Below, piece by piece: positions 3,945-46,873 of a stretch of DNA of 64,000 bases. The stretch spans positions 35,862 to 99,861 of the forward strand of contig DAGG01000027.1 in assembly GCA_002498125.1 (NCBI GenBank). Direction: 5' to 3'. Position 1 is the first letter of the stretch; every line of letters begins with the position of its first letter. The notes below the pieces were generated by a model. The model was not told the DNA's origin. It did no database searches and was given only the letters and a program-made list of their open reading frames with translations. Source of the DNA: Candidatus Woesearchaeota archaeon UBA525 (GTDB lineage Archaea > Nanobdellota > Nanobdellia > Woesearchaeales > UBA525). Both the position numbers and the translations under genes were made by a program.

Positions 3945-3973
3945 CAGATGAACAGAAACGCAGTGGCTTTAAG

Positions 3974-13387: not shown

Positions 13388-13852
13388 GTGGGCATACACA
13401 CAGTAGATATGGGAAAGCACAAGAGACACAATCAAACGACGCCTCGGTCCAACGACATGCTCAAGCTAGGCATCGGTGTGCTCGGCATCGCCGTGCTCAT
13501 CGGCACGATATTCTTCATCCGCGCGCAGTTCGACCCAAACCCCGGCTTCGAAAACCAAGCAACCTCAGGCGGAGCGCAGATGCAAGACGGCGCGCAAGTC
13601 GTTAATATGGAAGTGACCTCGTTCGACTACCGACCGGCAGACCTGACGGTGAAGCAGGGCGTGCCAGTGAAGTGGGTGATTGATGGCAGCGGAGCGTCAG
13701 GTTGCACGCAGTTCCTCATTGCGCGCGACTTCGGCATCAGCCAACGCATCGTACGTGGAGAAAACATCATCGAGTTCACGCCGACACAGAAAGGGACCTT
13801 TCCGTTCAGCTGCTCCATGAACATGGCACGCGGCACAATCACGGTCGTATGA
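13388..13852 (+). CDS. cupredoxin-like copper-binding protein, membrane anchored
   Basis: TM anchor followed by a beta-rich domain with Cys/Met (GCTQF...FSCSMNM). Stop overlaps the MCO start (ATGA). Confidence 0.45.
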   Translation: MGIHTVDMGKHKRHNQTTPRSNDMLKLGIGVLGIAVLIGTIFFIRAQFDPNPGFENQATSGGAQMQDGAQVVNMEVTSFDYRPADLTVKQGVPVKWVIDGSGASGCTQFLIARDFGISQRIVRGENIIEFTPTQKGTFPFSCSMNMARGTITVV

Positions 13853-15288
13853 GACGCATCATTGCACTAGGACTCCTCATACCGCTCATTCTTGCCTGCT
13901 CGCAGCTCCCGCAAGCCCAACCTCCGCAGGAGATTGTCGTGGGAAACGGCGGAACATTGCAACTGTATGCGGCAGAGGTCGAGAAGACCATCGCAGGCAA
14001 AGAGCAGCGGATGTACGCGTACAACGGGCAGATACCGGGTCCGCGCATACGGGTCACGCAGGGGTCCGGGATTAAGGTGAATTTCACCAACAGCCTCGAC
14101 GAGCCTACCACTGTGCACTGGCACGGCTTACGGCATGATGTCAAGGATGACGGTGTACCCATCATCTCGCAGAAGGAGGTGCAGCCAGGAGAGAGCTTCC
14201 TCTACAATCTCGATTTCCCTGATGAAGGCATCTTCTGGTACCATCCGCACGTCCGAGAAGACCGCCAGCAAGAGCTGGGTCTCTCCGGCAATATCATCGT
14301 GGAGCCCACAGATAATCACTACAGCCAGGTCGAGCACGAGGAATTCCTCGTCCTGGATGATATCTTCCTCGAAAACGGCAAGATTGTCGGATTCGGCGCA
14401 GAGCACGCTAACTTCGCGCTTATGGGACGATACGGCAACATCCACCTCGTGAACGGAGAGGAGAAATACTCGCTGGACGTCGCGCAAGGGGACGCTGTAC
14501 GTTTTTACATCACCGCGGTCTCCAACGTCAGGCCGTTCAACCTGTCGATTGAAGGCGCGACGCTCAAGCTGGTCGGGGGTGACATCGGACGCTATGAACG
14601 TGAAGAACTCATCGATAGCGTCATTATCGGACCGGCCGAACGCTATGTTGTCGAAGCGACGTTCAACGAGCCTGGGGCCTTCCGCATCCGTAACGTCAAC
14701 ATGTGGGACAGCTACGATCTTGGCGAGATACGCGTCAAGCAGAGTGGCAAGAGAAGTGAGAGCGCATTGCGCAGATACAAAGACGTCGAGGCGGACATCG
14801 CTCAGTACCGCGAGCACTTCGACCGTCGTGTCGATGAGACGCTCCGCCTGAGCGTGGAACTCGAGCATGCAGAGGAGATGCGTAGCCTCACGAACATCGA
14901 ATGGGAGGATACAATGGTCGAGGAGAACCGCCACTCCACACCTGAGGACGTACGGTGGATATTGCGTGACGAGCAGACTGGAGCTGAGAACATGGACATA
15001 TCCTACAGGTTCTTGGTAGGCGATGTGAAGAGGATCCGCGTCATCAATGATGCGGAGTCGGCGCATCCCATGCAGCACCTCATCCACATCCACGGGCAGC
15101 GATTCCTCATCCTCGAACAGGATGGTATAAGGAACACCAACATGGTATGGAAAGATACGTTCCTCATCCCCACAGGAAGCTATGTTGATATCATCCTGGA
15201 CGCGAGCAATCCAGGCACGTGGATGACCCACTGCCACATAGCAGAGCACCTAGAAGCGGATATGATGATGACCATGACGGTCGTATGA
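13849..15288 (+). CDS. multicopper oxidase (lipoprotein)
   Basis: HWHG, HPH and HCHIAEH...M copper-ligand motifs; lipobox LILAC signal peptide. Confidence 0.8.
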   Translation: MRRIIALGLLIPLILACSQLPQAQPPQEIVVGNGGTLQLYAAEVEKTIAGKEQRMYAYNGQIPGPRIRVTQGSGIKVNFTNSLDEPTTVHWHGLRHDVKDDGVPIISQKEVQPGESFLYNLDFPDEGIFWYHPHVREDRQQELGLSGNIIVEPTDNHYSQVEHEEFLVLDDIFLENGKIVGFGAEHANFALMGRYGNIHLVNGEEKYSLDVAQGDAVRFYITAVSNVRPFNLSIEGATLKLVGGDIGRYEREELIDSVIIGPAERYVVEATFNEPGAFRIRNVNMWDSYDLGEIRVKQSGKRSESALRRYKDVEADIAQYREHFDRRVDETLRLSVELEHAEEMRSLTNIEWEDTMVEENRHSTPEDVRWILRDEQTGAENMDISYRFLVGDVKRIRVINDAESAHPMQHLIHIHGQRFLILEQDGIRNTNMVWKDTFLIPTGSYVDIILDASNPGTWMTHCHIAEHLEADMMMTMTVV

Positions 15289-15666
15289 TCATTTCTTGCC
15301 GATACTGACGAATGCCCTGGCGCCTATGGCCTGCGGATAGCTCAGGCAGGTAGAACACTTGCGATTAGGAGGGCAGTGCTGCGTCCCTGCGTGCTTCACG
15401 CTCCACTGCTCGAGCGGCTCGAGGGCCTCATAGAGCGCCTTGCCTGCCGGCGTCAGCTGGTACCTGCCGCGTTGCTCAACGATGCGCTCCTGCTGCAGGA
15501 GCTTGAGCTCACGCGTAAGGATATGGTTCGTGATGAACCGCAGCTCACGCTGCAGGTCCGAAAATCCCATCGGCTCAGACAGTGCCTTGATTATCGGATA
15601 GCTCCACTTGCGCGAGAGCACACGGATAGGGTAGAGGCGCGGACACGATCTTGCGTCTTCAGGCAT
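15289..15666 (-). CDS. HxlR-family winged-helix transcriptional regulator
   Basis: CP..L..KWSYPII..L motif typical of HxlR/MarR-like regulators. Confidence 0.65.
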   Translation of the reverse strand: MPEDARSCPRLYPIRVLSRKWSYPIIKALSEPMGFSDLQRELRFITNHILTRELKLLQQERIVEQRGRYQLTPAGKALYEALEPLEQWSVKHAGTQHCPPNRKCSTCLSYPQAIGARAFVSIGKK

Positions 15667-15784
15667 CAAGAAGAGGCAGGAAAAGCGGATTTATAAATGT
15701 ATCATCAGAGATACGAGATGCTCGATACAAATGCGCGACCACGAGCCATCAAGCATATAAAAGAATAGCGTGTAACGGTAGCAT

Positions 15785-16252
15785 ATGCAGGACATCAACC
15801 AGAAACTCTTCGGCGCAGTGCTCATAGGACTCGCCCTCATCCTCATGTTCGTCCTCATCTTCGTGAAGATACAGAGCGACAAGGAAGGGGCGTTCCTCTG
15901 CCAAATCGTTGCCGAGAGTCCCGACATGAGCATGGCAGACTGCCCTGCACACAACAGCAGCAACTCCTGGCTCATCATGGTCGCCTTTGGAGTGGCATTC
16001 CTCATGCTCGGCGCGGGAGCATACCTCTCATTGCAGGGCCCTAAAGAACGCAGGACCAAGAAGCTCGACGAGGAAGAGCAGCGCATCGTCGAAATCCTCA
16101 AGCAACGCGAAGGATCCATGTACCAGAGCGACCTCATGAAGGAGCTGGACTATACCAAGGTCCGCATGACCAGGACCCTGGACAAGATGGAGAGCAAGCA
16201 CATACTCGAGCGCAAGCGGCGCGGGATGACGAACATCATCGTCCTCAAGTAG
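15785..16252 (+). CDS. membrane-anchored winged-helix regulator (MarR/TrmB-like)
   Basis: Two TM helices followed by an HTH (IVEILKQREGSMYQSDLMKELDYTKVRMTRTLDKME). Confidence 0.5.
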   Translation: MQDINQKLFGAVLIGLALILMFVLIFVKIQSDKEGAFLCQIVAESPDMSMADCPAHNSSNSWLIMVAFGVAFLMLGAGAYLSLQGPKERRTKKLDEEEQRIVEILKQREGSMYQSDLMKELDYTKVRMTRTLDKMESKHILERKRRGMTNIIVLK

Positions 16253-16294
16253 ACACCTCACCTCTTAATCCCGATTTTCTCTCGTTTTTCTCTT

Positions 16295-16354
16295 GTTTCA
16301 AGCGCCTGAAACCCTAGTGAAACTTTTTCTCGTCGAGAAATGAAACTGGTTTCA
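16295..16354 (+). promoter_or_regulatory. cluster of TGAAAC/GTTTCA operator-like repeats upstream of the Cu-island operon
   Basis: GTTTCA(16295-16300)-n6-TGAAAC(16307-16312), TGAAAC(16318-16323), and the perfect palindrome TGAAACtgGTTTCA(16341-16354). Confidence 0.4.
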
Positions 16355-16413
16355 CAGGCACTTAGATATGGTGTTCCGCCTTGAGTCTCTTAAAACACCT
16401 GTGAGGTGCGTGT

Positions 16414-17094
16414 GTGAAAAGAGACAATGCATATACAGTCATCATCGGCCTGATGCTGGCGGCGCTGTTCATCAGCAGCTTCAACATGTATACGTTGAGC
16501 AACCTGGAGATGTCCGCCCAGATGTCAGCCACCACAACGACAGGATCAGTGCAGACCGCGCTTGCGCAGTCGCCATCTGACGTGACGCCGAAGGGCGAGC
16601 CACGCATCTACGGCAAGGAGCTGGGAGTGGCATATGACCACGTGCACGCCAGCAACCCTAAGCTAGCGGATGCGACCATCAACAAGCTGGCAAAGCTCGA
16701 TGTGGACATCCAACTCACCGAGGACCAGAAGGCGCGCTACATCAATATCCTCTACAAGATGGATAACGGCATCTCCTGCGAGTACTGCTGCGGAGCTCGT
16801 GCCATCATCTTCGAGAACGGCGAGCCTGCGTGCGGATGTGCGCACAGCTATGCGATGCGTGGAGTAGCAAAGTACCTTATCACTGAGCACGGCAGCGAGT
16901 TCACCGACGCGCAGATACTAGAAGAAGCCGCGAAATGGAAGACACTCTTCTTCCCGACGCAGTCTGCAGCCAAGGCAGAGATCCTCAAGGCCCAAGGTAT
17001 CGAGCCGAACTACATCAACATCGGCAGCAACAAGTACCGCGGCATTGAGCAGGGCGCCGGCAGCGGCGGCGGCGGAATGGTAGGAGGATGCTAG
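16414..17094 (+). CDS. Cys-rich membrane-anchored protein ending -MVGGC
   Basis: N-terminal TM; CEYCCGARAI...PACGCAH cysteine cluster; Gly-rich tail ending GGGGMVGGC*. Confidence 0.5.
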   Translation: MKRDNAYTVIIGLMLAALFISSFNMYTLSNLEMSAQMSATTTTGSVQTALAQSPSDVTPKGEPRIYGKELGVAYDHVHASNPKLADATINKLAKLDVDIQLTEDQKARYINILYKMDNGISCEYCCGARAIIFENGEPACGCAHSYAMRGVAKYLITEHGSEFTDAQILEEAAKWKTLFFPTQSAAKAEILKAQGIEPNYINIGSNKYRGIEQGAGSGGGGMVGGC

Positions 17095-17103
17095 GTGATA
17101 CAC

Positions 17104-17346
17104 ATGGATGAAGAACATAAATCCCAGAAGTCCAAGCGCAAGACAGAGAGCTCAGCTCTCTTCTACGTCTTGATAGGCATGGTATGCCTGCTGCTCGTCT
17201 TCTCGACGGTGCAGACTGTGCAGATCATGAAGTTCAAGGAGAAAGTGAGCACCGCGAGCAGCGTCACCACTGTGGCGGCAGCAGCGCCAGCAGCGCAAGC
17301 GCCGGCACCGAGACCCGCGGCACCGACAATGGTCGGAGGGTGCTAG
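17104..17346 (+). CDS. small TM protein with Ala/Pro-rich tail ending -MVGGC
   Basis: 80 aa from the internal ATG; one TM helix; ends PTMVGGC*, identical to the upstream protein's C-terminus. Confidence 0.4.
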   Translation: MDEEHKSQKSKRKTESSALFYVLIGMVCLLLVFSTVQTVQIMKFKEKVSTASSVTTVAAAAPAAQAPAPRPAAPTMVGGC

Positions 17347-17347
17347 C

Positions 17348-17806
17348 ATGAAGCGCAACGGCTGGATAGCAACGGCAGCGGTGGCAGTCATCGCTATGGT
17401 GCTCATCTGGTTCGCAGTGAGTCCTGCTGAGGCCTCAGTGCTCGACGGCAAATCCGCTGTCGTGCACAAGGGCGACAGCTGCGGCTGCTGCAATGTGTAC
17501 GTCGGCTATGCAGAGAAGACCATGGCTGTCCAGGTGCTGAACAATGGCGAGGCCATCAAGAACCAGTACAATATCCCGACTGACCTCAGGAGCTGCCACA
17601 CGACAGTGGTCGATGGCTACTTCGTGGAAGGGCATATGCCCCTTGAGGCGATCGAGAAGCTGGTGACTGAGAAGCCCGACATCGCAGGCATCGCGTTGGC
17701 AGGGATGCCGTACGGCAGCCCGGGCATGCCAGGAGCAAAGCAAGGACCGTTCATCGTGTATGCGGTGAACAAGGACGGCACGTACCAGGAGTACATGCGG
17801 ATATGA
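17348..17806 (+). CDS. DUF411/CopG-like metal-binding protein
   Basis: Signal/TM anchor, CGCC motif and conserved His; the family is commonly found in copper-resistance clusters. Confidence 0.6.
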   Translation: MKRNGWIATAAVAVIAMVLIWFAVSPAEASVLDGKSAVVHKGDSCGCCNVYVGYAEKTMAVQVLNNGEAIKNQYNIPTDLRSCHTTVVDGYFVEGHMPLEAIEKLVTEKPDIAGIALAGMPYGSPGMPGAKQGPFIVYAVNKDGTYQEYMRI

Positions 17807-17830
17807 GCAGCGGAGAGGAGGGATGAAACC

Positions 17831-18382
17831 ATGAAAGTACCACCAAAAGCGGCATTATTCCCCCTCTCCATCCTTTTTTCCATTCTCTCTTCAATCCAGG
17901 TCCACGCCCACTGCCCGCTATGCACTATGGGTGCGGCGGCAGCAGCAGGCGGCGCGATGTGGCTCGGAGTCAGCGGCACCGTGGTCGCACTCTTCATCGG
18001 AGCGTTCGCGGTCAGCATGGGATTGTGGATCGGCCGCATAATCAAGAAGCAGTACATCCCGCACCAGACTGCGTGGATAACTCTCGTATCGTTCGCGACG
18101 ACAGCATTGCCGGTGCTGCCATTCATGATGTCTGGCACACCCGGCGACTACATCCCTATCTTCATCTCATGGGCGGGGGAGTACGGATCGCTCCTGAACA
18201 GGACGTACCTCATCAATATCCCCCTCATCGCTACGCTCGTCGGAGCAGGCATAGTGCTCGCGGCACCGTGGATGAGCAGGAAGATTACTGACTTGCGCGG
18301 CGAGACCCTGCCATACCAAGGAGTATCGCTCACGCTCATCATCCTCATCATCAGCGCCACGGCGCTCCAACTCATCATATGA
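17831..18382 (+). CDS. membrane protein with HCPLC motif
   Basis: Signal peptide, HAHCPLC motif, multiple TM helices. Confidence 0.45.
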   Translation: MKVPPKAALFPLSILFSILSSIQVHAHCPLCTMGAAAAAGGAMWLGVSGTVVALFIGAFAVSMGLWIGRIIKKQYIPHQTAWITLVSFATTALPVLPFMMSGTPGDYIPIFISWAGEYGSLLNRTYLINIPLIATLVGAGIVLAAPWMSRKITDLRGETLPYQGVSLTLIILIISATALQLII

Positions 18383-18831
18383 CCATGGATCCCATACTCA
18401 TAGCAGTCATCAGCATCACAACGGTATTCGTCGCCATGCTGCTGGTCAAGAAAGCGCTCGAGCGTCTCATCAAGCATCCCCTATGCGCCATATGCGTGGC
18501 TGTCAGCGTCACCTGGCTGACGCTGCTTGCGCTCAACATCATCGGAGCCTTCGATGACAAGGTGCTCATAGCGCTCCTCATGGGCCAGACAATCATAGGG
18601 CTGTACTACCTCATCGAGCAGAAAGCAGCAGAGCAGCTCATGGTGTTCCGCCTGCCACTCCTGCTCACGCTCACAGCAGCAGGGTACAGCATCATCATAG
18701 GCCGGCACTCATATACGACGATGGGATTCCTCGCAGTTGTCTGGGGAGCGTTCCTCGTCATCTTCGCGTTCAAGGACCGCGGCACACGCGCCTGGTTTAA
18801 CCGGGCAGTGGAGTGCTGCAAGAGGTGGTAG
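18379..18831 (+). CDS. membrane protein with CxxC (HPLCAIC) in TM1
   Basis: 4 TM; possible thiol-disulfide or metal-handling role. Confidence 0.45.
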   Translation: MTMDPILIAVISITTVFVAMLLVKKALERLIKHPLCAICVAVSVTWLTLLALNIIGAFDDKVLIALLMGQTIIGLYYLIEQKAAEQLMVFRLPLLLTLTAAGYSIIIGRHSYTTMGFLAVVWGAFLVIFAFKDRGTRAWFNRAVECCKRW

Positions 18832-18833
18832 AT

Positions 18834-18911
18834 ATGGAATGTTGCGGAAGCGATTGCTGTAAGAACAAGAAGGACAAGAAAGAGAAGAAAGAGGGCTGCT
18901 GTGAGAAGTAG
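18834..18911 (+). CDS. 25-aa Cys-rich peptide MECCGSDCCKNKKDKKEKKEGCCEK (metallothionein-like)
   Basis: Manual translation; three CC pairs; absent from the ORF track (<60 aa). Confidence 0.35.
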   Translation: MECCGSDCCKNKKDKKEKKEGCCEK

Positions 18912-19103
18912 CGCCTGGTTCGCCGCATGCGTCGGCATAGCCATCGTCGCGGCAGCGCTGTTCCTCTACACTGAACGGCCTCTCTTCTGGCTCCTGCTCC
19001 TGCTATGCCCTGCCATTCACCTATGGATGATGAAGAATATGCACAAGAGCGCGGACAATGATGGGGATAAGGGCGCAAGGAAGGATAAGCGGAGTTGCCA
19101 CTA

Positions 19104-19691
19104 ATGGACTGCTGCACGAAAAACGGAGAGACGGCGAAACGCAAGAGGCGGGGCGTGAGAGACCATCGACCATTCCTCTGGGGGCTTGGCGCCGCACTCG
19201 CCATGCTCGCGTTTTACACCGCGCTCCTGTCCATCCTGAATTCGCCTGTTCACGCGTGGGATGAGTTCGCGAAGATGTGGTACTGGATCACTGCCATCGC
19301 TCTCGGCTTCGGCCTGCAGATAGGGATGTACGCGCACATCAAGATAACGCTCAAGCACCGCGAGGGCACCGGCGCTGTCGCGGCCAGCGGCGGGATGTCC
19401 GGCGCGGCGATGGCGGCATGCTGCGCGCACCACCTGAGCGAAGTGCTGCCGCTCCTCGGCCTCGCTGCGCTATCGACGTTCCTCGTGCGCTATCAGTCCG
19501 CATTCCTCGCTGTAGGTCTTGCGTCTAACATCATCGGCATCATCATCATGCTGACACACATCAAGAAGCACGGCCTGTATGCGCGCGGGGGGCTGCTCGA
19601 TAGGCTCCTGCGCAAGCAGGACATGCTCCATGCTGCAGCAGCGCTCGCTGTCGGCGCGCTCATCGCGTTCAGCATCATAGGATTCATCTAG
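19104..19691 (+). CDS. membrane protein starting MDCC with internal AACCAHH motif
   Basis: Internal ATG gives MDCCTKNGE...; ~5 TM helices; second vicinal Cys pair. Confidence 0.45.
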   Translation: MDCCTKNGETAKRKRRGVRDHRPFLWGLGAALAMLAFYTALLSILNSPVHAWDEFAKMWYWITAIALGFGLQIGMYAHIKITLKHREGTGAVAASGGMSGAAMAACCAHHLSEVLPLLGLAALSTFLVRYQSAFLAVGLASNIIGIIIMLTHIKKHGLYARGGLLDRLLRKQDMLHAAAALAVGALIAFSIIGFI

Positions 19692-19700
19692 GAGGTAACT

Positions 19701-20141
19701 ATGGAAGAGAAGAACCTTGTCATCGGCCTGTGGACCATCATTGGTATCGGCCTCGTTTTCGCTGCGTACCTGCTCTTCGGGAGCCAGGACACAATCGCTG
19801 CGAGCAACGTACCGGCGGCAGCGCCAGGGAGCATCGTACGCACAGGCACGACAGATGATGGCGACGTAAGCGTCGACCTGACGCCGCTCGGCATCACCGA
19901 CGGGCATCTCGTCTTCGATATGGCGATCAACACCCATTCAGTCGACCTGAGCGGCATTGACCTGACGCGCGCTGCGCAGCTTGAGTACAACGGCAAGAAG
20001 GTGTACGCTGACGGCGCTCCGCAGTTAGGAGGCCATCACATATACGGCGGGCTCACATTCCCGGTCGAAGGCACGCCCCAGAGCTTCACAGTGACCATCA
20101 AGGGCATACCGAAGCAGCAGGAACGGGTCTTCAGGTGGTGA
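19701..20141 (+). CDS. membrane-anchored hypothetical protein
   Basis: SD-like ggagg 8 nt upstream; N-terminal TM followed by a beta-rich domain. Confidence 0.45.
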   Translation: MEEKNLVIGLWTIIGIGLVFAAYLLFGSQDTIAASNVPAAAPGSIVRTGTTDDGDVSVDLTPLGITDGHLVFDMAINTHSVDLSGIDLTRAAQLEYNGKKVYADGAPQLGGHHIYGGLTFPVEGTPQSFTVTIKGIPKQQERVFRW

Positions 20142-20275
20142 TGATGGACTGCTGCAAGCCAAAAGAGACGATGCCAGGACTGAAAGAGGAACCGAAGGAG
20201 AACGGCAGCAAGGTGCTCATCGCGGCGTTCCTCATCCTCGTGCTCATCGGAGGGCTGCTGCTCGTCTTCCTCTAA
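20141..20275 (+). CDS. 44-aa protein MMDCCKPKE... with C-terminal TM helix
   Basis: Manual translation; start overlaps the upstream stop (TGATG); not in the ORF track. Confidence 0.35.
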   Translation: MMDCCKPKETMPGLKEEPKENGSKVLIAAFLILVLIGGLLLVFL

Positions 20276-20329
20276 CGCGAGGACATTGGAGCACTGAATA
20301 GATATTCAATCAATAGTGGGAGGGATAAC

Positions 20330-20521
20330 ATGAAGAGAATCGTTTTCGCAATGCTGCTCATCGGCGTGCTCTTGCTCGCTGGGTGCGCACAGAATGATGG
20401 ACAGCGCAGCAGTGACACATACGCACCGTACCAGAACTCGGTCGGAGGCGGCTGCGGAGTGGCAGCACCTGCGGAGCCAGTAGAAGCAATCACGAGCATC
20501 GCAGAAGTGCCTGCAGCATAG
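20330..20521 (+). CDS. small lipoprotein
   Basis: Lipobox LLLAGC; 63 aa. Confidence 0.4.
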   Translation: MKRIVFAMLLIGVLLLAGCAQNDGQRSSDTYAPYQNSVGGGCGVAAPAEPVEAITSIAEVPAA

Positions 20522-20529
20522 GTGAACTA

Positions 20530-21003
20530 ATGTCAAGGAAAGACCGAAAGCGCAGGCAGGAAGAGGAGCGGCAGCGGCTCGCGGAGTCCAACGCACAGGT
20601 GCAGGAGCGCATCGTGAAGAGTGCGACTGAGCAAGCGAATGCGAGCAGGCGATGGAAGTGGATTGCCGCAGGCGGTGGAACGCTCATCATCATCCTGACA
20701 GTCGTCTTCGTAGTCAACGCCAGGGTGGCTGCGCAGCAGCCAGGCATGTACGACTCGTTCGCACAATGCCTCACAGAGAAGGGCGTGGTCGTCTACGGCG
20801 CCCTGGCCACCTGCAAGTACACTCAGGCGCAGGCAAACATGTTCGGGAACTCCTTCAAGTACCTCGACTACCGCGATTACCGCGAGTACGAGGGGCTGCC
20901 GAGGATTACCATCACGCCCACATGGCTCATCGATGATCAACGTTACGAGCGTGTGCAGTCCTTCGAGCGACTCTCTGCACTCACAGGATGTCCTGTAAGG
21001 TAG
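20530..21003 (+). CDS. membrane-anchored thioredoxin-fold-like protein
   Basis: TM anchor; VVVYGALATCKY and ITITPTWLIDD resemble the glutaredoxin/thioredoxin core (single Cys). Confidence 0.35.
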   Translation: MSRKDRKRRQEEERQRLAESNAQVQERIVKSATEQANASRRWKWIAAGGGTLIIILTVVFVVNARVAAQQPGMYDSFAQCLTEKGVVVYGALATCKYTQAQANMFGNSFKYLDYRDYREYEGLPRITITPTWLIDDQRYERVQSFERLSALTGCPVR

Positions 21004-21041
21004 AGAGATGGTGAACAGGTGCGATAAGATATGGTGAAAGC

Positions 21042-21815
21042 ATGTTGCCTTATGTGACTATACCATCGTGGAGCATCGGCCCGCTGCACATGAACCTGTA
21101 CGGCGTGATGTTCGCCAGCGGCGTGTTCGTCGCCGCGCTCCTTGCCGAACGTGAGGCGAAACGGCAAGGCTTCAGTGCCGAGATGGTGCAACAGCTGGTG
21201 CTCTGGATGATGCTCGGCATAGTCGTCGGCGCACGGCTATTCTATGTTCTGTTCTACTGGCCCGAGGATCTCCCACGCACGCTCATAGGCACCATCGCAG
21301 TCTGGAAGGGAGGTCTTGCTTTCCTGGGGGGCTTCCTCGGAGCGGTCAGCGCGGGGTATCTGTTCACAAGAGCGAAGAAGCTGCCGTTCTGGCGGCTCGC
21401 AGACATATTCACCATACCTCTCGTGATAGGACACATCATCGGCAGGATAGGTGACTACCTTACAGGAGCGCATCCTGGCGCGATCACAGATCTCCCCTGG
21501 GGCATCCCATTGCATGGAGCGATACGCCACCCGGTGGTCCTCTACGAGATACTCGGGCTTGTCATCATCGTGGCAGCGCTGTTGGTCCTGCGCAAGCGGC
21601 TGCGGGGCGATGGTATGCTATTCACGGCATATGTGACACTCTATGCGCTTCAGCGGCTCATCCTCGATGTGTTCAGAATCCCTGCAACCGATCCCCGCTA
21701 TCTAGGCATGACGCCTACGCAGATGGGCCTGGTCGTAATAGCTGCATTACTCATCATATACCAGTACAGAGGGCGCCGCAAGCAAAGTGCCGGATTCCGC
21801 AAGCGAACAGCATAA
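21042..21815 (+). CDS. lgt: prolipoprotein diacylglyceryl transferase
   Basis: SIGP...YG, GARLFYVLFY, WKGGLAFLGG and GRIGDY signature blocks collinear with E. coli Lgt. Confidence 0.8.
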   Translation: MLPYVTIPSWSIGPLHMNLYGVMFASGVFVAALLAEREAKRQGFSAEMVQQLVLWMMLGIVVGARLFYVLFYWPEDLPRTLIGTIAVWKGGLAFLGGFLGAVSAGYLFTRAKKLPFWRLADIFTIPLVIGHIIGRIGDYLTGAHPGAITDLPWGIPLHGAIRHPVVLYEILGLVIIVAALLVLRKRLRGDGMLFTAYVTLYALQRLILDVFRIPATDPRYLGMTPTQMGLVVIAALLIIYQYRGRRKQSAGFRKRTA

Positions 21816-21840
21816 GAGAAGCATCCTGCTGAAGGAAACA

Positions 21841-21873
21841 TTTATATACATCATATGATTTTATCTTCATATG
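21841..21873 (+). promoter_or_regulatory. TATA box (TTTATATA) plus CATATGA-n8-TCATATG inverted repeat overlapping the arsR start codon
   Basis: A/T box ~25 nt upstream of ATG 21871 (leaderless arrangement); perfect 7-bp IR at 21852-21858 / 21867-21873. Confidence 0.35.
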
Positions 21874-22191
21874 AAATCTTGTTCATGTATGGGGGGATGC
21901 AAGTGCACAAACTGCAGCTGCAAGAGCTACTCGGCAGTTTTTGAGGCACTCGGAAACCAGAACCGACTGCACATCATCAACGCGCTCCGCAAGGAACCGC
22001 ATAACGTCAGCGAGATCATCGCCAAAACAGGCCTCGAGCAGACGTGCGTATCGCACTGCCTGCGCAAGCTCGAGGAAGGCGGCCTCGTTGATGTAGAACG
22101 CCAAGGGAAATTCAGGGTATACACACTCAACAAGAAGACTGTGGAGCCGCTGCTCCAGGCAATAGACCAGCATACGAAGGTGAAGAGATGA
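21871..22191 (+). CDS. ArsR/SmtB-family metalloregulator with N-terminal Cys cluster
   Basis: MKSCSCMGGCKCTNCSC followed by an ArsR HTH (NRLHIINAL...VSEI). Confidence 0.75.
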   Translation: MKSCSCMGGCKCTNCSCKSYSAVFEALGNQNRLHIINALRKEPHNVSEIIAKTGLEQTCVSHCLRKLEEGGLVDVERQGKFRVYTLNKKTVEPLLQAIDQHTKVKR

Positions 22192-22391
22192 AGACGGACA
22201 TCACAATCAAGGGAATGCACTGCCACAGCTGCGAGATGCTGCTCACCGACGTCCTTTCGGACATCGACGGCGTCGATGAAGCCAAGGTCAGTATCAAGGA
22301 AGGGAGAGCAGAGGTCAAGTACGACCCTGCGAAGACCGATGAGGCAAAGATGCGCGCAGCGATAGAGGCTGAAGGTTACACTACGGAGTAA
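22188..22391 (+). CDS. copZ: copper chaperone CopZ (HMA domain)
   Basis: GMHCHSCE (MxCxxC) motif; 67 aa. Confidence 0.8.
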   Translation: MKTDITIKGMHCHSCEMLLTDVLSDIDGVDEAKVSIKEGRAEVKYDPAKTDEAKMRAAIEAEGYTTE

Positions 22392-22393
22392 AA

Positions 22394-23305
22394 ATGGTCA
22401 CTGAACGCATCACCATCCACGGAACGCATTGCAGCTCCTGCGAGAAGACCATCACGAGGACCCTCGCGAAAGAAGGAGTGAAAGTAGAGAGCATCTCGCA
22501 CAAGACTGGCAAGGCCACGATTACCCACGACAGCATACCGCACGATAGGATAGACGCGATGCTACAGAGCAAAGGATACGGCATCGAAAAGTGCCGCGAT
22601 GGCACTTGCACCCCAGATGACATGCATAAGCACCAACCACTCTCGGAGAAGACATTCGATACTGAGCGCCGCATCATCACCAACGGCATCCTCGCGCTCA
22701 TCATTCTCGTCGCTACGCAGATAGGGCTCGTCTACGCGATATACAGCATCATGCCAGGGTACTCGAGCAAGTACATGCTCCCGCTCATCTATATCCCTGT
22801 GGCGGTGGTCACGAATCTCGTGGCGCTCTGGCACCAGCGCGCTTACCGCCGCGAGGTCAGCTGCATGACCGGCATGATGATCGGCATGACCATCGGCATG
22901 ACGAGCGGCTTCGTCATCGGCGGCATCTCGGGACTGATCAACGGCATGTTCACCGGCTCGGTGATCGGCACAGCGATCGGGATAGCGGCAGGAGTCTACG
23001 CTGGCAGGTGCTGCGGCACCATGGGCATGATGGAAGGCATGATGGCAGGGCTCATGAGCGGCACCATGGGTGCCATGCTCACCGTCATGATGATCGGAGA
23101 CCACGTCGAGGCGTTCCTCATCATCCTCATCGCAATTACTATCCTGATCCTCGCGGGACTCATGCGCGTCACAGTAGAGGAGACACGCGGCTCAGAGAAT
23201 GACGTGAAGCCATGGCCGTTATGGGCGGTGGTAGGAGTAGGGTTCATCGCAATGACAGTGATTAGCGCCGCGATAATGCTCGCGCCAAAGAGCATCTACG
23301 GATAA
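22394..23305 (+). CDS. HMA-domain fused to Met/Gly-rich polytopic membrane protein
   Basis: N-terminal GTHCSSCE HMA motif; TM region with MTGMMIGMTIGMTSG...GRCCGTMGMMEGMMAGLMSGTMG. Confidence 0.55.
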   Translation: MVTERITIHGTHCSSCEKTITRTLAKEGVKVESISHKTGKATITHDSIPHDRIDAMLQSKGYGIEKCRDGTCTPDDMHKHQPLSEKTFDTERRIITNGILALIILVATQIGLVYAIYSIMPGYSSKYMLPLIYIPVAVVTNLVALWHQRAYRREVSCMTGMMIGMTIGMTSGFVIGGISGLINGMFTGSVIGTAIGIAAGVYAGRCCGTMGMMEGMMAGLMSGTMGAMLTVMMIGDHVEAFLIILIAITILILAGLMRVTVEETRGSENDVKPWPLWAVVGVGFIAMTVISAAIMLAPKSIYG

Positions 23306-23309
23306 GACG

Positions 23310-25604
23310 ATGGACCATTCAAAGCACCTAGCCAGAGACCACCCTACACCGCCCGCTGAAGACGCTCTCTCTGCAAAGCCGGCAGAACAAAGCAAGGTCA
23401 CGAAACTCAGCATCGAGGGCATGCACTGTGCGAGCTGCGCGAACATCATCACGAGAGGACTGAGCAAGGTGTCTGGCGTCACGTCAGCAAACGTGAACTA
23501 CGGCACGCACAAGGCGACAGTCACGCACGACCCCTCGGTCTCCGATGCGCAGCTCATCGCAGCAGTGAAATCGAAAGGGTACGGCGCGAGCACTATAACG
23601 GGCGACGAGGACCCTGAACTGCAGCAGAAACGCGAGCGCGCGGAGTACGATGCCCTTAAGCACCTATTCATAATCTCAACGATCTTCGCCACGCCTGCGC
23701 TCATCCTCGGCATGCTCTTCATGGAGGACAGTTTCCTCTTCATCGGCTACAGCCTGCCGCACATCGCAATCGTACTCTTCCTGCTCGCGACACCGGTACA
23801 GTTCTACGTCGGCGCCATGTTCTACAAGGGCGCATGGGCCGCACTGCGCAATAGCACAGCGAACATGGATTCGCTCATCGCGCTCGGCACGAGCGCCGCA
23901 TACCTATACAGCGTCTATCTCGTATTCGTCGCAAGGGAGATGACACAGTACTTTGAGATCAGCGCAGTGCTCATCACACTCGTCATCATGGGCAAGCTCC
24001 TCGAGAGCAAGGCCAAGGGGAGGACTTCGGAGGCCATCAAGAAGCTCATGGAACTCTCACCGAAGACCGCGACAGTCCTGCGCGACGGACAGGAGATGGT
24101 CATCGACATCGATGACGTCAAGCCCGGCGACATCGTGCTCGTCAAGCCCGGTGAGCGCGTTCCTGTCGATGGAATGGTCGTCGAAGGGTCGTCATCTGTT
24201 GATGAGAGCATGATCACTGGCGAGAGCATCCCTGTCGAGAAGTTAGAGGGGAGCGAAGTAATCGGCGGCACCATCAACAAGAACGGCAGTCTGAAGTTCA
24301 AGGCGACGAAGGTCGGCGCAAACACGACGCTCGCCAATATCGTTAAACTCATCGAGGACGCGCAAGGCCAGAAGGCACCCATTCAGCGTTTCGCCGACTT
24401 GATCAGCAGCTACTTCGTACCGATAGTGGTCGTCATTGCGCTCTTGACTTTCAGCACATGGTACTGGATGATCGGCCAACCATTCGGCTTCGCGCTCCAG
24501 ACCGCTATCGCTGTGCTCGTCATCGCATGCCCCTGCGCGCTCGGCCTCGCCACCCCCACCGCCATCATGGTCGGGACAGGTAAGGGAGCGCAAAACGGCA
24601 TCCTCATCAAAGGAGGAGAGGCGCTTGAGACTGCGCACAAGGTGCGCGCAATAGTCTTCGACAAGACCGGTACACTCACGGAAGGCAAGCCGCAGGTCAC
24701 TGACATCGTCCCGCTCCACGGCCTCTCGGAGAAACAATTCCTGCACATCGCTGCGAGCATCGAAAAGCACAGTGAGCACCCGCTCGCAGACGCTATCGTG
24801 CGCCATGCGCATGAGCACAAGGTACCGCTCGTCGCAGCGACGCACTTCAAGGCCATCCCTGGTTACGGCATCACCGCAAATGTGGAACACCATACGTTCC
24901 ATTTCGGTAACCTACGCCTGATGCAACAGCAGAACGTGCACATGGATGAGTCGTTGCAGCAGGTCGCGGATCTTGAGAGCGCAGGCAAGACAGTGATGTT
25001 CCTCGCCACAGGCCAAAAACTTGCAGGTATGATCGCTGTTGCCGACACCATCAAGGAGACGACGCCGGCAGCAGTCGCGAAGCTGCGCAAGATGCACGTC
25101 GAGGTCTACATGATCACCGGCGATAATCGCAGGACAGCGGAAGCGATAGCGCGCCAGGCGGGCATCAAGGCAGAGAACGTGTTCGCAGAGGTCCTGCCGC
25201 AGGACAAAGCAGCGCATGTCGCCAAGCTTCAGGAAGGCGGCCGCAAGGTCGCGATGGTCGGCGATGGCATCAACGATGCTCCAGCTCTCGCCAAGGCCGA
25301 CATCGGCATCGCGATGGGCAGCGGCACTGACGTCGCGATGGAGACTGGTAATGTGGTGCTCATGCGTAACGACCTCTCGGACGTACCGCGTGCGCTGCGG
25401 CTCTCGCGGCTCACAATGAGCAAGATCCGCCAAAACATGTTCTGGGCGCTTATCTACAATATTATTGGCATCCCTATCGCTGCAGGACTGCTCTACTACA
25501 GCACCGGCTGGCTGCTCTCGCCGATCCTCGCTGGCGCTGCGATGGCGCTCAGCTCGGTGAGCGTCGTGAGCAACTCGCTGCTGCTGAAGGCAAAGAGACT
25601 ATAG
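23310..25604 (+). CDS. copA: copper-translocating P1B-type ATPase
   Basis: N-terminal HMA (GMHCASC); CPC (IACPCALGLATP); DKTGTLT; GDGINDAP. Confidence 0.9.
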   Translation: MDHSKHLARDHPTPPAEDALSAKPAEQSKVTKLSIEGMHCASCANIITRGLSKVSGVTSANVNYGTHKATVTHDPSVSDAQLIAAVKSKGYGASTITGDEDPELQQKRERAEYDALKHLFIISTIFATPALILGMLFMEDSFLFIGYSLPHIAIVLFLLATPVQFYVGAMFYKGAWAALRNSTANMDSLIALGTSAAYLYSVYLVFVAREMTQYFEISAVLITLVIMGKLLESKAKGRTSEAIKKLMELSPKTATVLRDGQEMVIDIDDVKPGDIVLVKPGERVPVDGMVVEGSSSVDESMITGESIPVEKLEGSEVIGGTINKNGSLKFKATKVGANTTLANIVKLIEDAQGQKAPIQRFADLISSYFVPIVVVIALLTFSTWYWMIGQPFGFALQTAIAVLVIACPCALGLATPTAIMVGTGKGAQNGILIKGGEALETAHKVRAIVFDKTGTLTEGKPQVTDIVPLHGLSEKQFLHIAASIEKHSEHPLADAIVRHAHEHKVPLVAATHFKAIPGYGITANVEHHTFHFGNLRLMQQQNVHMDESLQQVADLESAGKTVMFLATGQKLAGMIAVADTIKETTPAAVAKLRKMHVEVYMITGDNRRTAEAIARQAGIKAENVFAEVLPQDKAAHVAKLQEGGRKVAMVGDGINDAPALAKADIGIAMGSGTDVAMETGNVVLMRNDLSDVPRALRLSRLTMSKIRQNMFWALIYNIIGIPIAAGLLYYSTGWLLSPILAGAAMALSSVSVVSNSLLLKAKRL

Positions 25605-25613
25605 GAGGACAAC

Positions 25614-26057
25614 ATGAAGAACACAGCACTTATCATCGCCGCACTGCTCATGATTATCGGCACCATCGCGTACATAGCGACCGGCGCTTACAAGGCACCG
25701 GAGATGGAGAGCCAAGGTCTTACCTTGTTCCCGGATGGGGAAGGAGAGCGGCTCTTTATCATGACCTCGCCTGAGGGACACATCAAGTTCTTCTACGAGA
25801 GCGCTGTGCCTATCGGCGAGCCGCGCGAAGGGTCTGCAGATGGTTACAGGACGCAGGATATCGATGGAGTAACGTACCAGCCGGTGCTCATCGGTAGCGC
25901 AGAGGCCGCAATGATGCGAGAGGAAAAACTCTTCTCGCAGCCAGGCGACACCATCAGCGGGTTCTTCGGCCAGGACGTCATCGTCGTAGGCGTGCTCGAG
26001 GAGACAGGCACATCGCTTGACATGATGCACGTGGTCCTACCTGGAGTGTTCCGTTGA
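25614..26057 (+). CDS. membrane-anchored hypothetical protein
   Basis: SD ggagg upstream; one TM. Confidence 0.4.
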   Translation: MKNTALIIAALLMIIGTIAYIATGAYKAPEMESQGLTLFPDGEGERLFIMTSPEGHIKFFYESAVPIGEPREGSADGYRTQDIDGVTYQPVLIGSAEAAMMREEKLFSQPGDTISGFFGQDVIVVGVLEETGTSLDMMHVVLPGVFR

Positions 26058-26428
26058 GAGCGCTGGGCGCGGTAATGCTCGCACTGCTACTTACTGCGTG
26101 CGCACAAACGCCCGCTGAGCGGCAGCAGGACCTCTCCCCCGAGCAGTTCAGAGAGTACATCTCGAATGACGGCGTCTTCGTCATCGACGTCCACATCCCT
26201 GAGCAGCAGCACATCCCCGGCACAGATGCTGTGATTCCGTATAACGAGCTGCGCATGCAATCACGGTCGCTGCCAGATGACCGGGATACCTCTATCGCAA
26301 TCTACTGCCGAAGCGGCAGCATGAGCGAGGAAGCGATGCAGACGTTCAAGGAAATGGGCTACACCGACGTCGTCCACCTCGAGGGCGGCCTGAACGCCTG
26401 GCAGGCGGCAGGTTATGAGGTAAAATGA
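26054..26428 (+). CDS. rhodanese-domain sulfurtransferase (lipoprotein)
   Basis: Lipobox LLLTAC; catalytic loop CRSGSMS. Confidence 0.7.
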   Translation: MRALGAVMLALLLTACAQTPAERQQDLSPEQFREYISNDGVFVIDVHIPEQQHIPGTDAVIPYNELRMQSRSLPDDRDTSIAIYCRSGSMSEEAMQTFKEMGYTDVVHLEGGLNAWQAAGYEVK

Positions 26429-26811
26429 TGTACAGCTACACAAAAGAGAGTGGTAAAAGCTTCGCAGATGCAGAAGCAGCAGTACGTGAAGCGCTCAAGG
26501 CGCGTGGATTCGGTGTGATAACTGAGATTGACGCGCAGAGGACGGTGAAGGAGAAGCTCGGTCAGGATATGCTGCCATATAAGATCCTCGGTGCGTGCAA
26601 TCCGCAATTCGCCCATAAGGCCATGACTGCAGAGCCAGGCATCGGCGTTCTGCTGCCGTGCAACGTGCTCATCCGGGAGGACGCCGGCAAGACAGTCATC
26701 TCCTGCATCCTACCGACAGTCCAGCTCGGCAAAGCCGACAACCCGTCACTCCTCTCTATGGCAGAAGATGTGGAGCGTCTCCTCAAGCAAACAGTGGACG
26801 AAGCTTCCTGA
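26425..26811 (+). CDS. DUF302-family protein
   Basis: YKILGACNP motif and size typical of DUF302. Confidence 0.55.
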   Translation: MMYSYTKESGKSFADAEAAVREALKARGFGVITEIDAQRTVKEKLGQDMLPYKILGACNPQFAHKAMTAEPGIGVLLPCNVLIREDAGKTVISCILPTVQLGKADNPSLLSMAEDVERLLKQTVDEAS

Positions 26812-26832
26812 TTTTTTCCTTTTCTCTCAAAG
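26812..26832 (+). terminator. poly-T archaeal-type terminator
   Basis: TTTTTTCCTTTTCTCTC immediately after the stop codon. Confidence 0.35.
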
Positions 26833-26865
26833 ATTCTTTTATATCATCAAGCATGCACTGCTGAT

Positions 26866-27579
26866 GTGAGACCGCACTATCCCGCGTCGCTATTCATCAT
26901 CTATCTTGTGGTCGCCGCATGGTCTGCGATACGCCCGAATTACTACAACGGCTGGGCTGCGGAGATGGTGCTGCCTGTCGCGTTCGTCGTCGTGCTAGTC
27001 GTCACCTACCGGAAGTTCCCGCTCTCACGCATATCCTACACGCTCATCTTCATGTACCTCCTCCTGCACACGATAGGCGCGCACTACACCTACGCGGAAG
27101 TCCCGTTCGGGAACTGGTTGCAGGAGGTCTTCAGCCTTGAACGCAACCCGTACGACCGCATCGTGCACTTCAACTTCGGGCTGCTCCTCGCATATCCTGT
27201 GCGCGAAGTATTCCTTCGCGTCGCGAGCACACGTGGCGCGTGGGGGTACTGGCTACCGCTCGAGCTCACGCTCGCGTTCTCTGCTATCTATGAGATCATC
27301 GAATGGGGTGTGGCGGTGGTGTCGCCCGGCGGAGGGACTGCGTTCCTCGCGACGCAGGGCGATCAGTTCGATGCGCAAAAGGACATGGCCCTCGCAGGAC
27401 TCGGCGCACTCTTCAGCATGGGAGGGGTGATGGCGTACAACATACGCAACGACCCCTGGTTCATGGAGAACCTGCGCAGGAGCCTGACCATCAAGCGGCA
27501 TAGGCCACTCGGAGAGGTCCGCCTGCGCGAGATGGTTTCGGAGATGCGGCGCAGACGTAAGGAGAGGAAGCAGAAGTGA
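26866..27579 (+). CDS. polytopic membrane protein (DUF2238/YjdF-like)
   Basis: 6-7 TM; a weak resemblance to YjdF-type proteins. Confidence 0.4.
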   Translation: MRPHYPASLFIIYLVVAAWSAIRPNYYNGWAAEMVLPVAFVVVLVVTYRKFPLSRISYTLIFMYLLLHTIGAHYTYAEVPFGNWLQEVFSLERNPYDRIVHFNFGLLLAYPVREVFLRVASTRGAWGYWLPLELTLAFSAIYEIIEWGVAVVSPGGGTAFLATQGDQFDAQKDMALAGLGALFSMGGVMAYNIRNDPWFMENLRRSLTIKRHRPLGEVRLREMVSEMRRRRKERKQK

Positions 27580-31119: not shown

Positions 31120-31225
31120 CTCACGTCACAAACCCGTGGAGGGCGCTTATAAACCTTTTTGTTACCTGGGAGATACTAAGGAAGAAGGGAAGAGGAACAG
31201 ACATCAGCGTCGCCTTGGCTCCAAT

Positions 31226-31276
31226 CCGAGGGCGAGCGACGAAACGCGAAGTCGTTTCGACAGTGCTCGCCCGAGA
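31226..31276 (+). other. long perfect-stem hairpin in the xfp/dph6 divergent intergenic region
   Basis: GGGCGAGC...GCTCGCCC 8-bp outer stem, with an inner GACGAAACG/CGTTTCGAC stem. Confidence 0.3.
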
Positions 31277-31331
31277 CAAGCCACGCAGATGGCCGCGACG
31301 CAAGTATGAAAAAGAGGAAGTGAACACTAGT

Positions 31332-36755: not shown

Positions 36756-36780
36756 GCATCCTATTTTTTTCCTTTCCATC
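36756..36780 (+). terminator. T-rich stretch (possible intra-operon attenuator/terminator)
   Basis: CTATTTTTTTCCTTTCC after the stop. Confidence 0.3.
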
Positions 36781-36806
36781 AATGTTAGATAGAAGAATGT
36801 GGGAAC

Positions 36807-44451: not shown

Positions 44452-46873
<2,422 letters not shown>

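Follow-up and report, generated by a model that had tools for sequence, protein, structure and literature searches.

An Lgt-family protein encoded within a copper and thiol-redox island of a Woesearchaeota-like DPANN archaeon

We analysed 64,000 nucleotides of contig DAGG01000027.1 (positions 35,862 to 99,861; assembly GCA_002498125.1) of Candidatus Woesearchaeota archaeon UBA525, this whole stretch being called the window, which encodes a homologue of Lgt, the prolipoprotein diacylglyceryl transferase of bacteria, within a cluster of copper and thiol-redox genes. An earlier annotation made from the sequence alone, hereafter the original prediction, had placed a bacterial-type Lgt with four signature blocks here. 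The open reading frame (ORF) is present as predicted, starting with ATG and coding for 257 amino acids, and its translation contains all four blocks, i.e. WSIGPLHMNLYG, GARLFYVLFY, WKGGLAFLGGFLG and GRIGDYLTG. It matches the Pfam family PF01790 (LGT) with E 5e-51 (173.7 bits, cut-off 24.9; profile positions 4-231 of 240) and passes the NCBIfam equivalog TIGR00544 'lgt' (137.9 bits, cut-off 118.9). The Joint Genome Institute (JGI) call of the same gene begins at Met17 resulting in a protein of 241 amino acids; we prefer the 257-residue form because its first 16 residues align with homologues showing the consensus MIPYKxFPMFxLGPLHxNMYG.

An AlphaFold2 model, built on an alignment of 27 members of the protein's clade (mean predicted local distance difference test score 87.1, predicted template modelling (TM) score 0.83), shows an N-terminal β-hairpin (arm-1, strands 10-17) and seven long helices (residues 19-41, 46-71, 92-111, 116-141, 165-184, 192-211 and 225-256). 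In a Foldseek search of the PDB this model has a single significant match, E. coli Lgt 5azb (E 2.5e-11, probability 1.00, TM-score 0.72), the runner-up following at E 0.27 and none but 5azb falling below E 0.1; the same structure is the sole solved relative by sequence (E 4.6e-19; 25% identity). Little is left of the periplasmic head domain, which comprises approximately 19 residues versus approximately 42 in E. coli Lgt.

The gene is part of a co-directional cluster of approximately 14 kb (13457-27579), in which the HxlR gene alone was noted on the opposite strand (Table 1). The original prediction had missed this copper/thiol-redox island around lgt. Between positions 20330 and 26811 the gaps between genes range from -4 to 55 bp; two unknown genes separate the DUF7343 regulator from the DUF411 gene, and one lies between CopA and the rhodanese gene. 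The four membrane proteins g23-g26 have no Pfam or NCBIfam match, and three consecutive ones (17831-19691, +) carry the CxxC/CC motifs HAHCPLC, HPLCAIC and MDCC...AACCAHH and are kept in several copper islands of DPANN (Diapherotrites, Parvarchaeota, Aenigmarchaeota, Nanoarchaeota, Nanohaloarchaeota) archaea. The thioredoxin-like protein g28 preceding lgt is homologous to the thioredoxin-like domain of Synechococcus VKOR-Trx (PDB 4nv6/3kp9, E 2-4e-4). Of its active-site CxxC only C-K-Y-T is left, both in the window protein and in the homologue of locus L001 (43% identity; handles of this type denote the lgt loci compared with the window), and a homologue from a Peribacteria member of the Candidate Phyla Radiation (CPR; L025), directly upstream of lgt, retains C-P-H-C. 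The ArsR-family regulator following lgt has an unusual Cys-rich N-terminus, MKSCSCMGGCKCTNCSCKS, with eight Cys in 106 amino acids, and is probably the metal sensor of the operon. The protein in which an HMA domain is fused to a polytopic membrane part contains 24 Met, in runs such as GMMIGMTIGMTSG and GMMEGMMAGLMSGTMG, belongs to no known family and may be a Cu(I)-conducting membrane protein.

Table 1. Features of the window and of two related loci (positions are those of the window unless a locus is named).
Feature	Position	Strand	Remarks
lgt homologue (group A, DPANN clade)	21042-21815	+	257 aa, 7 predicted transmembrane helices, head domain very short
GGLAFLGG block of Lgt	21309-21332	+	E. 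coli G98-G99-MSF-H103-G104-G105; H103 replaced by Leu95
Signature motif of transmembrane helix 4 (TM4) of Lgt	21429-21479	+	G130-H131-x2-G134-R135-I-G137-D138-Y-L-T141-G142-A-H144-P-G146; from residue tables and invariant columns
Cupredoxin-like protein, membrane-anchored	13457-13852	+	PF13473 (JGI annotation, same sequence); overlaps start of multicopper oxidase
Multicopper oxidase (MCO)	13849-15288	+	PF07732/PF00394/PF07731; lipobox signal peptide MRRIIALGLLIPLILAC
HxlR-type transcription regulator	15289-15669	-	PF01638
DUF7343/MarR-like regulator, membrane-anchored	15785-16252	+	PF24034; homologues in L012, L019
DUF411 (CopG-type metal-binding) protein, membrane-anchored	17348-17806	+	PF04214, 83 bits; homologues in L009, L012, L017
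Four membrane proteins g23-g26	17831-20141	+	Three with CxxC/CC motifs; kept in DPANN islands (BLAST synteny)
63-aa small lipoprotein	20330-20521	+	Lipobox LLAGC; VGGGCGVA contains a second Cys
g28, thioredoxin-like protein with N-terminal membrane anchor	20530-21003	+	38 bp upstream of lgt
ArsR/SmtB-type metalloregulator, Cys-rich N-terminus	21871-22191	+	PF01022; homologues in 7 group A loci
CopZ-like HMA metallochaperone	22188-22391	+	PF00403, 61 bits
HMA domain fused to Met/Gly-rich polytopic membrane protein	22394-23305	+	PF00403; homologues in L001, L009
CopA-type P1B ATPase	23310-25604	+	CASC HMA motif, CPC in translation
Rhodanese-domain lipoprotein	26054-26428	+	PF00581; lipobox LLLTAC
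DUF302 protein	26425-26811	+	PF03625, 89 bits; also in L001, L007 islands
DUF2238 membrane protein	26866-27579	+	PF09997; right end of cluster
285-aa lipobox protein, further candidate substrate	32799-33656	+	AALAFSLLAC; outside island; no known family
Bud32/RIO-type kinase	8210-8803		Archaeal marker; Rpr2/Rpp21 and UPF0113 also left of lgt
Diphthamide synthase	31215-32000		Archaeal marker, right of lgt
Ribosomal protein S3Ae	49035-49844		Archaeal marker
Prefoldin	60826-61140		Archaeal marker
UPF0147	61137-61382		Archaeal marker
Paired Lgt copies, L001	4460-5251 and 10001-10765		One group A and one group B copy
Paired Lgt copies, L015	3834 and 9375		One group A and one group B copy

The host of the island is archaeal. 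Gene annotation on both sides of lgt bore out the archaeal context (Bud32, Rpp21, prefoldin) that the original prediction had described, and the named relatives of the S3Ae protein all are Candidatus Woesearchaeota with 60-75% identity. GC content is even across the window (0.53-0.60; 57% overall), and in their tetranucleotide profiles the island (13849-27579) and the rest of the window correlate with r = 0.94, compared to 0.86-0.94 for any other 4-kb segment. An independent 51-kb JGI contig spans the left junction, leading from Rpr2/RIO1/UPF0113 into the cupredoxin-MCO pair, further stretches of the window are present in two Logan assemblies, and unrelated studies have yielded contigs of 132-302 kb from Nanoarchaeota, Woesearchaeota and Aenigmatarchaeota on which the island has the same architecture. 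A bacterial contig or a chimera, which the original prediction had named as what would overturn it, would mean that a bacterial copper island was joined to an archaeal contig by contamination or faulty assembly. This would suit the bacterial look of Lgt, CopA, MCO, phosphoketolase and GyrB and the binning of three short contigs with lgt of the same clade as bacteria, yet it is effectively refuted by the uniform composition, the archaeal markers on both sides, the independent JGI contig and the long archaeal contigs carrying the same island, so that we regard it as barely credible. That the ORF encodes a true Lgt-family protein of archaeal origin we consider virtually certain.

A search of 5.8 billion proteins returned approximately 65 relatives at 50-62% identity (268-334 bits), those with names being Woesearchaeota, Nanoarchaeota or Aenigmarchaeota, followed by a sharp step below which bacterial Lgts appear with approximately 35% identity and at most 143 bits. 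Among the GTDB species representatives the close tier consists of Woesearchaeota, Nanoarchaeota and Aenigmatarchaeota, with contigs of 132, 188, 252 and 302 kb, some of these relatives being labelled 'uncultured Methanosarcinales' (co-assembly bins). An exhaustive search of 1.84 billion cluster representatives yielded 16,116 Lgt-family representatives, 65 of them below E 1e-30. The GenBank and JGI pipelines already label these archaeal proteins as Lgt.

The original prediction had proposed a phylogeny against bacterial and archaeal homologues, which we ran as a neighbour-joining tree of the Lgt copies taken from 80 loci (200 bootstraps). It shows two separate archaeal Lgt groups, i.e. group A, to which the window Lgt belongs (core 72% support), and group B (72%); the nearest non-archaeal neighbours of group A are CPR Saccharibacteria and Peribacteria, joined to it with 83% bootstrap. 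In the 150 nearest cluster representatives the dominant pattern is W26/C146/H152/D243 (E. coli numbering, used throughout for residues not marked as those of the window), and to judge from these sequences group A is a small Y26/D146 offshoot of the N146C-type subfamily. Group B is found in Woesearchaeota, Nanoarchaeota and unclassified archaeal metagenome-assembled genomes (L001, L015, L037, L042, L044, L047, L061, L077, L080), with canonical N146 and E151 and mostly E243, the copies of L001 and L015 keeping H103 as well. These two loci, from two Nanoarchaeota species, hold one Lgt of each group approximately 5.5 kb apart, and the group B lgt of L001 adjoins a Thioredoxin_4/DsbA-like gene.

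Three close-tier relatives (L011, L013, L016) are encoded on short contigs labelled bacterial. L011 encodes DUF1670, which we take to be an archaeal family, and the L016 contig carries CopA, cytochrome c and a redoxin. On L013 (6.3 kb, binned as Spirochaetaceae; 971-2820, 3692-4471) the group A lgt adjoins an OmpR-type histidine kinase/response regulator pair; given this two-component system L013 may be truly bacterial, in which case some members of group A could really come from bacteria, or else the module may move across domains. In a rival reading, lgt would be recently transferred bacterial cargo, passive or poorly functional in an archaeal membrane, on a copper-resistance island moving between bacteria, CPR and DPANN. 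The position of CPR next to group A, the perhaps genuinely bacterial L013, the loci having only island genes in common and in variable order, and the presence of lgt on Enterococcus copper islands and plasmids are all in line with such a transfer. However, the closest bacterial proteins are only 35-38% identical; the composition is fully ameliorated, the window having 57% GC with a tetranucleotide correlation of 0.94 and its relatives 30-40% GC with proteins 50-60% identical; and the clade is kept across three DPANN phyla with 40 invariant columns. No integrase or transposase was seen beside the island, no relatives of the window Lgt were found on IMG/VR viral contigs, and the tRNA-Pro gene at 57862 is far from the island. 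Altogether we judge this kind of transfer improbable.

Comparing every window gene by BLAST with all lgt loci as a test of synteny, we find that only island genes are common to the window and other lgt loci, the gene order being variable. CopA, ArsR, HMA, DUF411, DUF302, MCO and g24-g28 recur beside the lgt of core group A, the window CopA being 49-63% identical to the ATPases adjoining lgt in nine group A loci. Clusters of lgt with a Cu-ATPase, a Cu chaperone, an MCO and a metalloregulator are found in the window (13.4-27.6 kb) and in L001, L007, L009, L010, L017 and L019. L001 has the order Redoxin, DsbD_TM, lgt (4-bp overlap), 69-aa lipoprotein and g28 homologue, followed further on and with gaps by MCO, ArsR and then cupredoxin, CopA and DUF302. 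L003 and L019 contain DsbD_TM, YHS, glutaredoxin, PF18916, lgt, CopA and DUF7343, and L005 and L007 contain DUF302, lgt, DsbD_TM, YHS, glutaredoxin, CopA and ArsR. The link to the copper island holds for the D146 core of group A and was not seen, using BLAST with the window genes, in the C146 sub-branch, in group B or in the two CPR loci. As a separate observation, lgt loci of the N146C type from Acidobacteria/Gemmatimonadota (L027, L030, L039, L040, L043, L046, L060, L063) have CopA, MCO, DUF411, HMA or DUF302 within 10 kb, and the linkage of lgt to copper genes may be broader than DPANN and Enterococcus.

Most residues known to be essential in E. coli Lgt are kept. Aligned to that enzyme (E. 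coli reference in agreement with the PDB alignment of 5azb; clade tables with n=69, invariant columns from 27 sequences), the window Lgt and its clade retain Y26, R73, G98, G99, G104, D129, G142, R143, G145, G154, H196-P197, Y201-E202, Y235, R239 and R246. Nine of these, i.e. Y26, R143, G154 and R239 (window Y20, R135, G146 and R205) and G99, G142, G145, Y235 and R246 (window G91, G134, G137, Y201 and R212), are present in 65-69 of the 69 clade members. Y26, H103, R143, N146, G154 and R239 are reported as indispensable in E. coli (PMC13251419), and four of these six are kept in the window Lgt. H103 is replaced by Leu95 (Phe in 62/69 clade members), N146 by D138 (D in 65/69); furthermore, E151 corresponds to A143 (G in 58/69), and E243 is Asp in the window Lgt and its clade. 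At the positions of E. coli L139 and L152 the clade has an invariant His (window H131 and H144), resulting in the TM4 motif G-H-x2-G-R-x-G-D-Y-x-T-G-x-H-P-G (window residues 130-146), the equivalent in E. coli being G142-R143-LG-N146-FING-E151-LW-G154. Spaced i, i+4 and i+7 on helix 116-141, H131, R135 and D138 should by helical periodicity face the same side, towards the central cavity. Among 27 clade sequences with a mean identity of 57%, 40 columns are invariant, indicating purifying selection.

The original prediction had named loss of the conserved catalytic His/Tyr as what would overturn it. This is half the case, Tyr26 and Tyr235 being kept and His103 lost, which does not refute the assignment because Y, W or F naturally occupy this position in functional bacterial Lgts (PMC13251419). 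N146 is Cys in distant Lgts including that of Leptospira, and since the Leptospira enzyme partly complements E. coli, position 146 tolerates change. N146C and E151C/D variants are described in bacteria and N146D is not described there (PMC13251419); on alignment, N146D in the clade of the window Lgt thus presents itself as a new variant and H103 as a naturally variable position.

The lipoboxes of the window provide candidate substrates. All four that the original prediction had named were verified, i.e. MRRIIALGLLIPLILAC of the MCO (13849), MRALGAVMLALLLTAC of the rhodanese protein (26054), MKRIVFAMLLIGVLLLAGC (20330) and MGGKWAAALAFSLLAC (32799). A loose PROSITE-like pattern fired on many shadow ORFs and was replaced by a strict rule, requiring a basic n-region, an h-region both hydrophobic and free of charges, and [LVIMF]-x-[GAS]-C at positions 14-32, which misses the window MCO due to a Pro in its h-region. 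With this rule, lipobox ORFs are enriched beside core group A lgt, at 0.93 per 10 kb compared to 0.23 at bacterial lgt loci (binomial p = 2e-4) and 0.10 at group B lgt loci. Three of the four lipobox ORFs of the window lie inside the 14-kb island (p = 0.036). In L001/L015 the 69-aa ORF that follows lgt has a lipobox, as have the MCO and a cupredoxin-like protein; the 63-aa ORF of the window and the 69-aa ORF of L001 have LAGC and VGGGCGVA in common, the counterpart being located directly downstream of lgt in L001/L015.

Our data favour, with reasonable though not full confidence, a model according to which the window gene is a native, working Lgt-type transferase of a Woesearchaeota-like DPANN archaeon, lipidating lipobox cysteines and notably those of the island's own exported proteins. 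Alternatively, the protein may be a neofunctionalised enzyme having kept the Lgt fold and the phosphate-binding arginines, in which the pocket has been re-tooled (His131-Arg135-Asp138 stripe on TM4, His144) for a different reaction within the copper/thiol island, e.g. the transfer of a different lipid, modification of the GGGCG lipoprotein alone or the use of a non-protein thiol as target, general lipidation being left to a canonical group B Lgt or to AliA. The clade-specific substitutions sit exactly at signature-motif positions, the two Nanoarchaeota genomes with both group A and group B Lgt suggest non-redundancy, group A is tied to the copper island while group B and the C146 sub-branch are not, and other substrates or mechanisms have been proposed for some deviant bacterial Lgts in the mBio 2026 paper (PMC13251419). 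On the other hand, R143 and R239 positioning the phosphate of phosphatidylglycerol (PG) are retained together with Y26, G154 and Y235, the nearest class, W26/C146/H152, includes Lgts that are the only ones of bacteria rich in lipoproteins such as Leptospira (PMC13251419), and lipobox ORFs are enriched beside group A and not beside group B. Weighing these points, we consider neofunctionalisation unlikely.

Several points weigh against a working Lgt. The changes H103 to Leu and N146 to Asp affect two of the six E. coli-indispensable residues, and E151 and E243 differ as well, so that canonical chemistry is not guaranteed. A bacterial-type enzyme would need to work with archaeal sn-2,3 ether lipids, unless the cell held bacterial-type PG. 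Lipobox proteins are common across DPANN (PMC12462473), making lipoboxes alone weak evidence, and AliA/AliB as a separate archaeal system could serve the same lipoboxes. The phylogeny is a neighbour-joining tree with moderate support (72-83%). Finally, no LspA-like ORF is present in the 64-kb window, in the 7 kb left flank, which contains nothing relevant, or at a distance of up to 10 kb from any archaeal lgt. The LspA queries, E. coli and B. subtilis sequences used with phmmer, were validated by strong matches in 20 bacterial loci, in which lspA adjoins lgt. LspA (PF01252) is likewise absent from the precomputed Pfam annotations of the window region and the archaeal loci, approximately 71 kb of this genome being covered, and no CN_hydrolase/Lnt domain is found in the precomputed annotations of the stretches covered. 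Lnt is optional even in bacteria. The search for lspA and lnt suggested by the original prediction thus returned neither at the loci covered. Its two alternatives, an acquired bacterial lipoprotein pathway and a rare archaeal Lgt, each hold in part: a real Lgt lies on an archaeal contig, and the further enzymes of a pathway, LspA and Lnt, were not found at the loci covered.

Compared to known systems, the window Lgt shares with E. coli Lgt the Pfam/TIGRFAM family, the 7-transmembrane fold, arm-1 hairpin and GG..GG block as well as R143/R239, Y26, G154, Y235, H196-P197 and Y201-E202, and differs in its occurrence in an archaeon and in a copper island instead of a housekeeping context and in its almost deleted head domain. 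Nearest in sequence space are the N146C Lgts (Leptospira interrogans, M. smegmatis MSMEG_5408, CPR; PMC13251419), having H152-P-G and D243 in common with the window Lgt; they contain Cys instead of Asp at 146 and Trp instead of Tyr at 26, whereas group A has the invariant His139 and is mostly archaeal. AliA and AliB (arCOG02177/02178) are the lipoprotein lipidation factors of Haloferax volcanii, AliA showing marginal similarity to PF01790 with 29% HHpred probability (PMC12462473). They presumably do the same job in an archaeal cell, attaching a lipid to the lipobox Cys by a thioether, and likewise have two conserved arginines in a membrane pocket; from its match to PF01790 (E 5e-51) we infer that the window Lgt is not AliA.

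An lgt-copper association is also found in bacteria. The Enterococcus copper island tcrYAZB-cueO-cusRS includes a gene for a prolipoprotein diacylglyceryl transferase which copper-sensitive strains lack (PMC4511184), and 491 plasmids carry an Lgt homologue, 233 of them from Enterococcus. On the Enterococcus durans plasmid CP012367 (L087) lgt lies directly beside genes for CopY, a P-type ATPase, chaperones and a copper oxidase. The Lgt of this plasmid (~7990-9000, frame 3), where the plasmid table lists no gene, has an in-frame extra hydrophobic segment and a C-terminal His/Met-rich tail, MMFMHKGHGHAGHHHMHGEDHSKH, suggesting a direct copper-binding appendage on a bacterial Lgt. As in DPANN, an extra lgt is linked to a CopA/CopB-type ATPase, a copper chaperone, an MCO and a metalloregulator, which in both cases would serve lipoprotein acylation under copper stress, but the Enterococcus copy belongs to another clade, is bacterial and plasmid- or transposon-borne, and because of its approximately 31% identity and its canonical H103/N146/E151 the association appears convergent. 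The DPANN islands furthermore resemble Scs (suppressor of copper sensitivity) and CcdA-TlpA systems, which reduce extracytoplasmic thiols, in that copper genes are paired with genes for DsbD_TM/CcdA, redoxin/thioredoxin-like and VKOR-Trx-like proteins, the common theme being that cysteines of the envelope are protected from copper; Lgt is not among the Scs proteins, however, and the window has a monothiol (CxxT) thioredoxin-like protein and no recognisable DsbD_TM.

For the window Lgt as a working transferase we propose the following mechanism. The island would join copper export and oxidation (CopA, CopZ-like HMA, MCO, cupredoxin, DUF411, ArsR-type regulator) to extracytoplasmic thiol chemistry mediated by the membrane-anchored thioredoxin-like protein, the rhodanese and the CxxC membrane proteins. 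Lipobox precursors, among them the MCO, the rhodanese, the GGGCG protein of 63 aa and the product of the ORF at 32799, would be exported, the Lgt homologue would then move the glyceryl-lipid of a phosphatidylglycerol-type lipid, which could be diacyl or archaeol-based, onto the thiol of the lipobox Cys, and the resulting thioether would anchor these proteins on the membrane's outer face. Copper has been shown to impair lipoprotein acylation in E. coli (PMC6538781), which is why an island-borne Lgt would sustain lipidation under copper stress, and the adjacent g28 could hold the target thiol reduced or copper-free. Going further, and only tentatively, DPANN may make lipoproteins by genuine Lgts of two or more clades, including a canonical one and, adapted to copper stress, group A of the copper islands. 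In such an enzyme the re-tooled pocket together with the monothiol thioredoxin-like partner would allow thioether formation while Cu(I) competes for the lipobox thiol, and the donor might be archaeol-based or a lipid scavenged from the host.

Other parts of the window contain genes of different kinds. Bacterial-type genes for a full-length phosphoketolase (XFP_N/XFP/XFP_C; 28765-31119, -) and for DNA gyrase B (44693-46873, +) lie beside the archaeal core. Six large co-directional ORFs (35646-43694, +), of which two code for a 661-aa AAA ATPase and a 416-aa DUF6638 protein and the others are unannotated, may constitute a defence or other uncharacterised system. A membrane-anchored PLDc_2 protein (2928-3944, -) shows weak similarity to NucT nucleases and cardiolipin synthases; we considered it as evidence for PG/cardiolipin and dropped it, all NCBIfam matches being far below the cut-offs. 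If it were a phosphatidyl-transferase, it would bear on which glycerophospholipids the cell has.

The absence of Lgt from archaea, from which the original prediction had started, is indeed stated in a 2018 review (PMC6098224), in the 2025 AliA/AliB paper based on 524 arCOG genomes (PMC12462473) and in the 2026 Lgt phylogenomics paper based on RefSeq genomes of February 2021 (PMC13251419), both genome sets under-sampling DPANN. This repeated statement is contradicted by the bona fide Lgt homologues on long Woesearchaeota, Nanoarchaeota and Aenigmatarchaeota contigs, and our literature search for Lgt or Lsp in DPANN/Woesearchaeota found no paper discussing them. The family itself and the automatic Lgt labels were already known; new are archaeal Lgts whose active-site motif is distinctive and whose setting in a copper island is conserved. 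The coupling of lgt paralogues to copper-resistance islands recurs across domains, in DPANN, Enterococcus and some Acidobacteria, and agrees with experiments in which copper blocked the acylation of lipoproteins (PMC6538781). The presence of Lgt in these archaea raises the question of how a bacterial-type enzyme copes with archaeal or scavenged lipids in host-dependent DPANN cells, and genes of the window type are concrete candidates for Lgt complementation tests in E. coli or Haloferax. How lipidation occurs in archaea with many lipobox proteins and without AliA/AliB was flagged as open by Hong et al. 2025 (PMC12462473). If DPANN were to make lipoproteins by genuine Lgts, including a copper-stress-adapted group A, this gap would be filled, the textbook absence of Lgt from archaea would be overturned and a new metal-stress-linked Lgt subclass would be defined.

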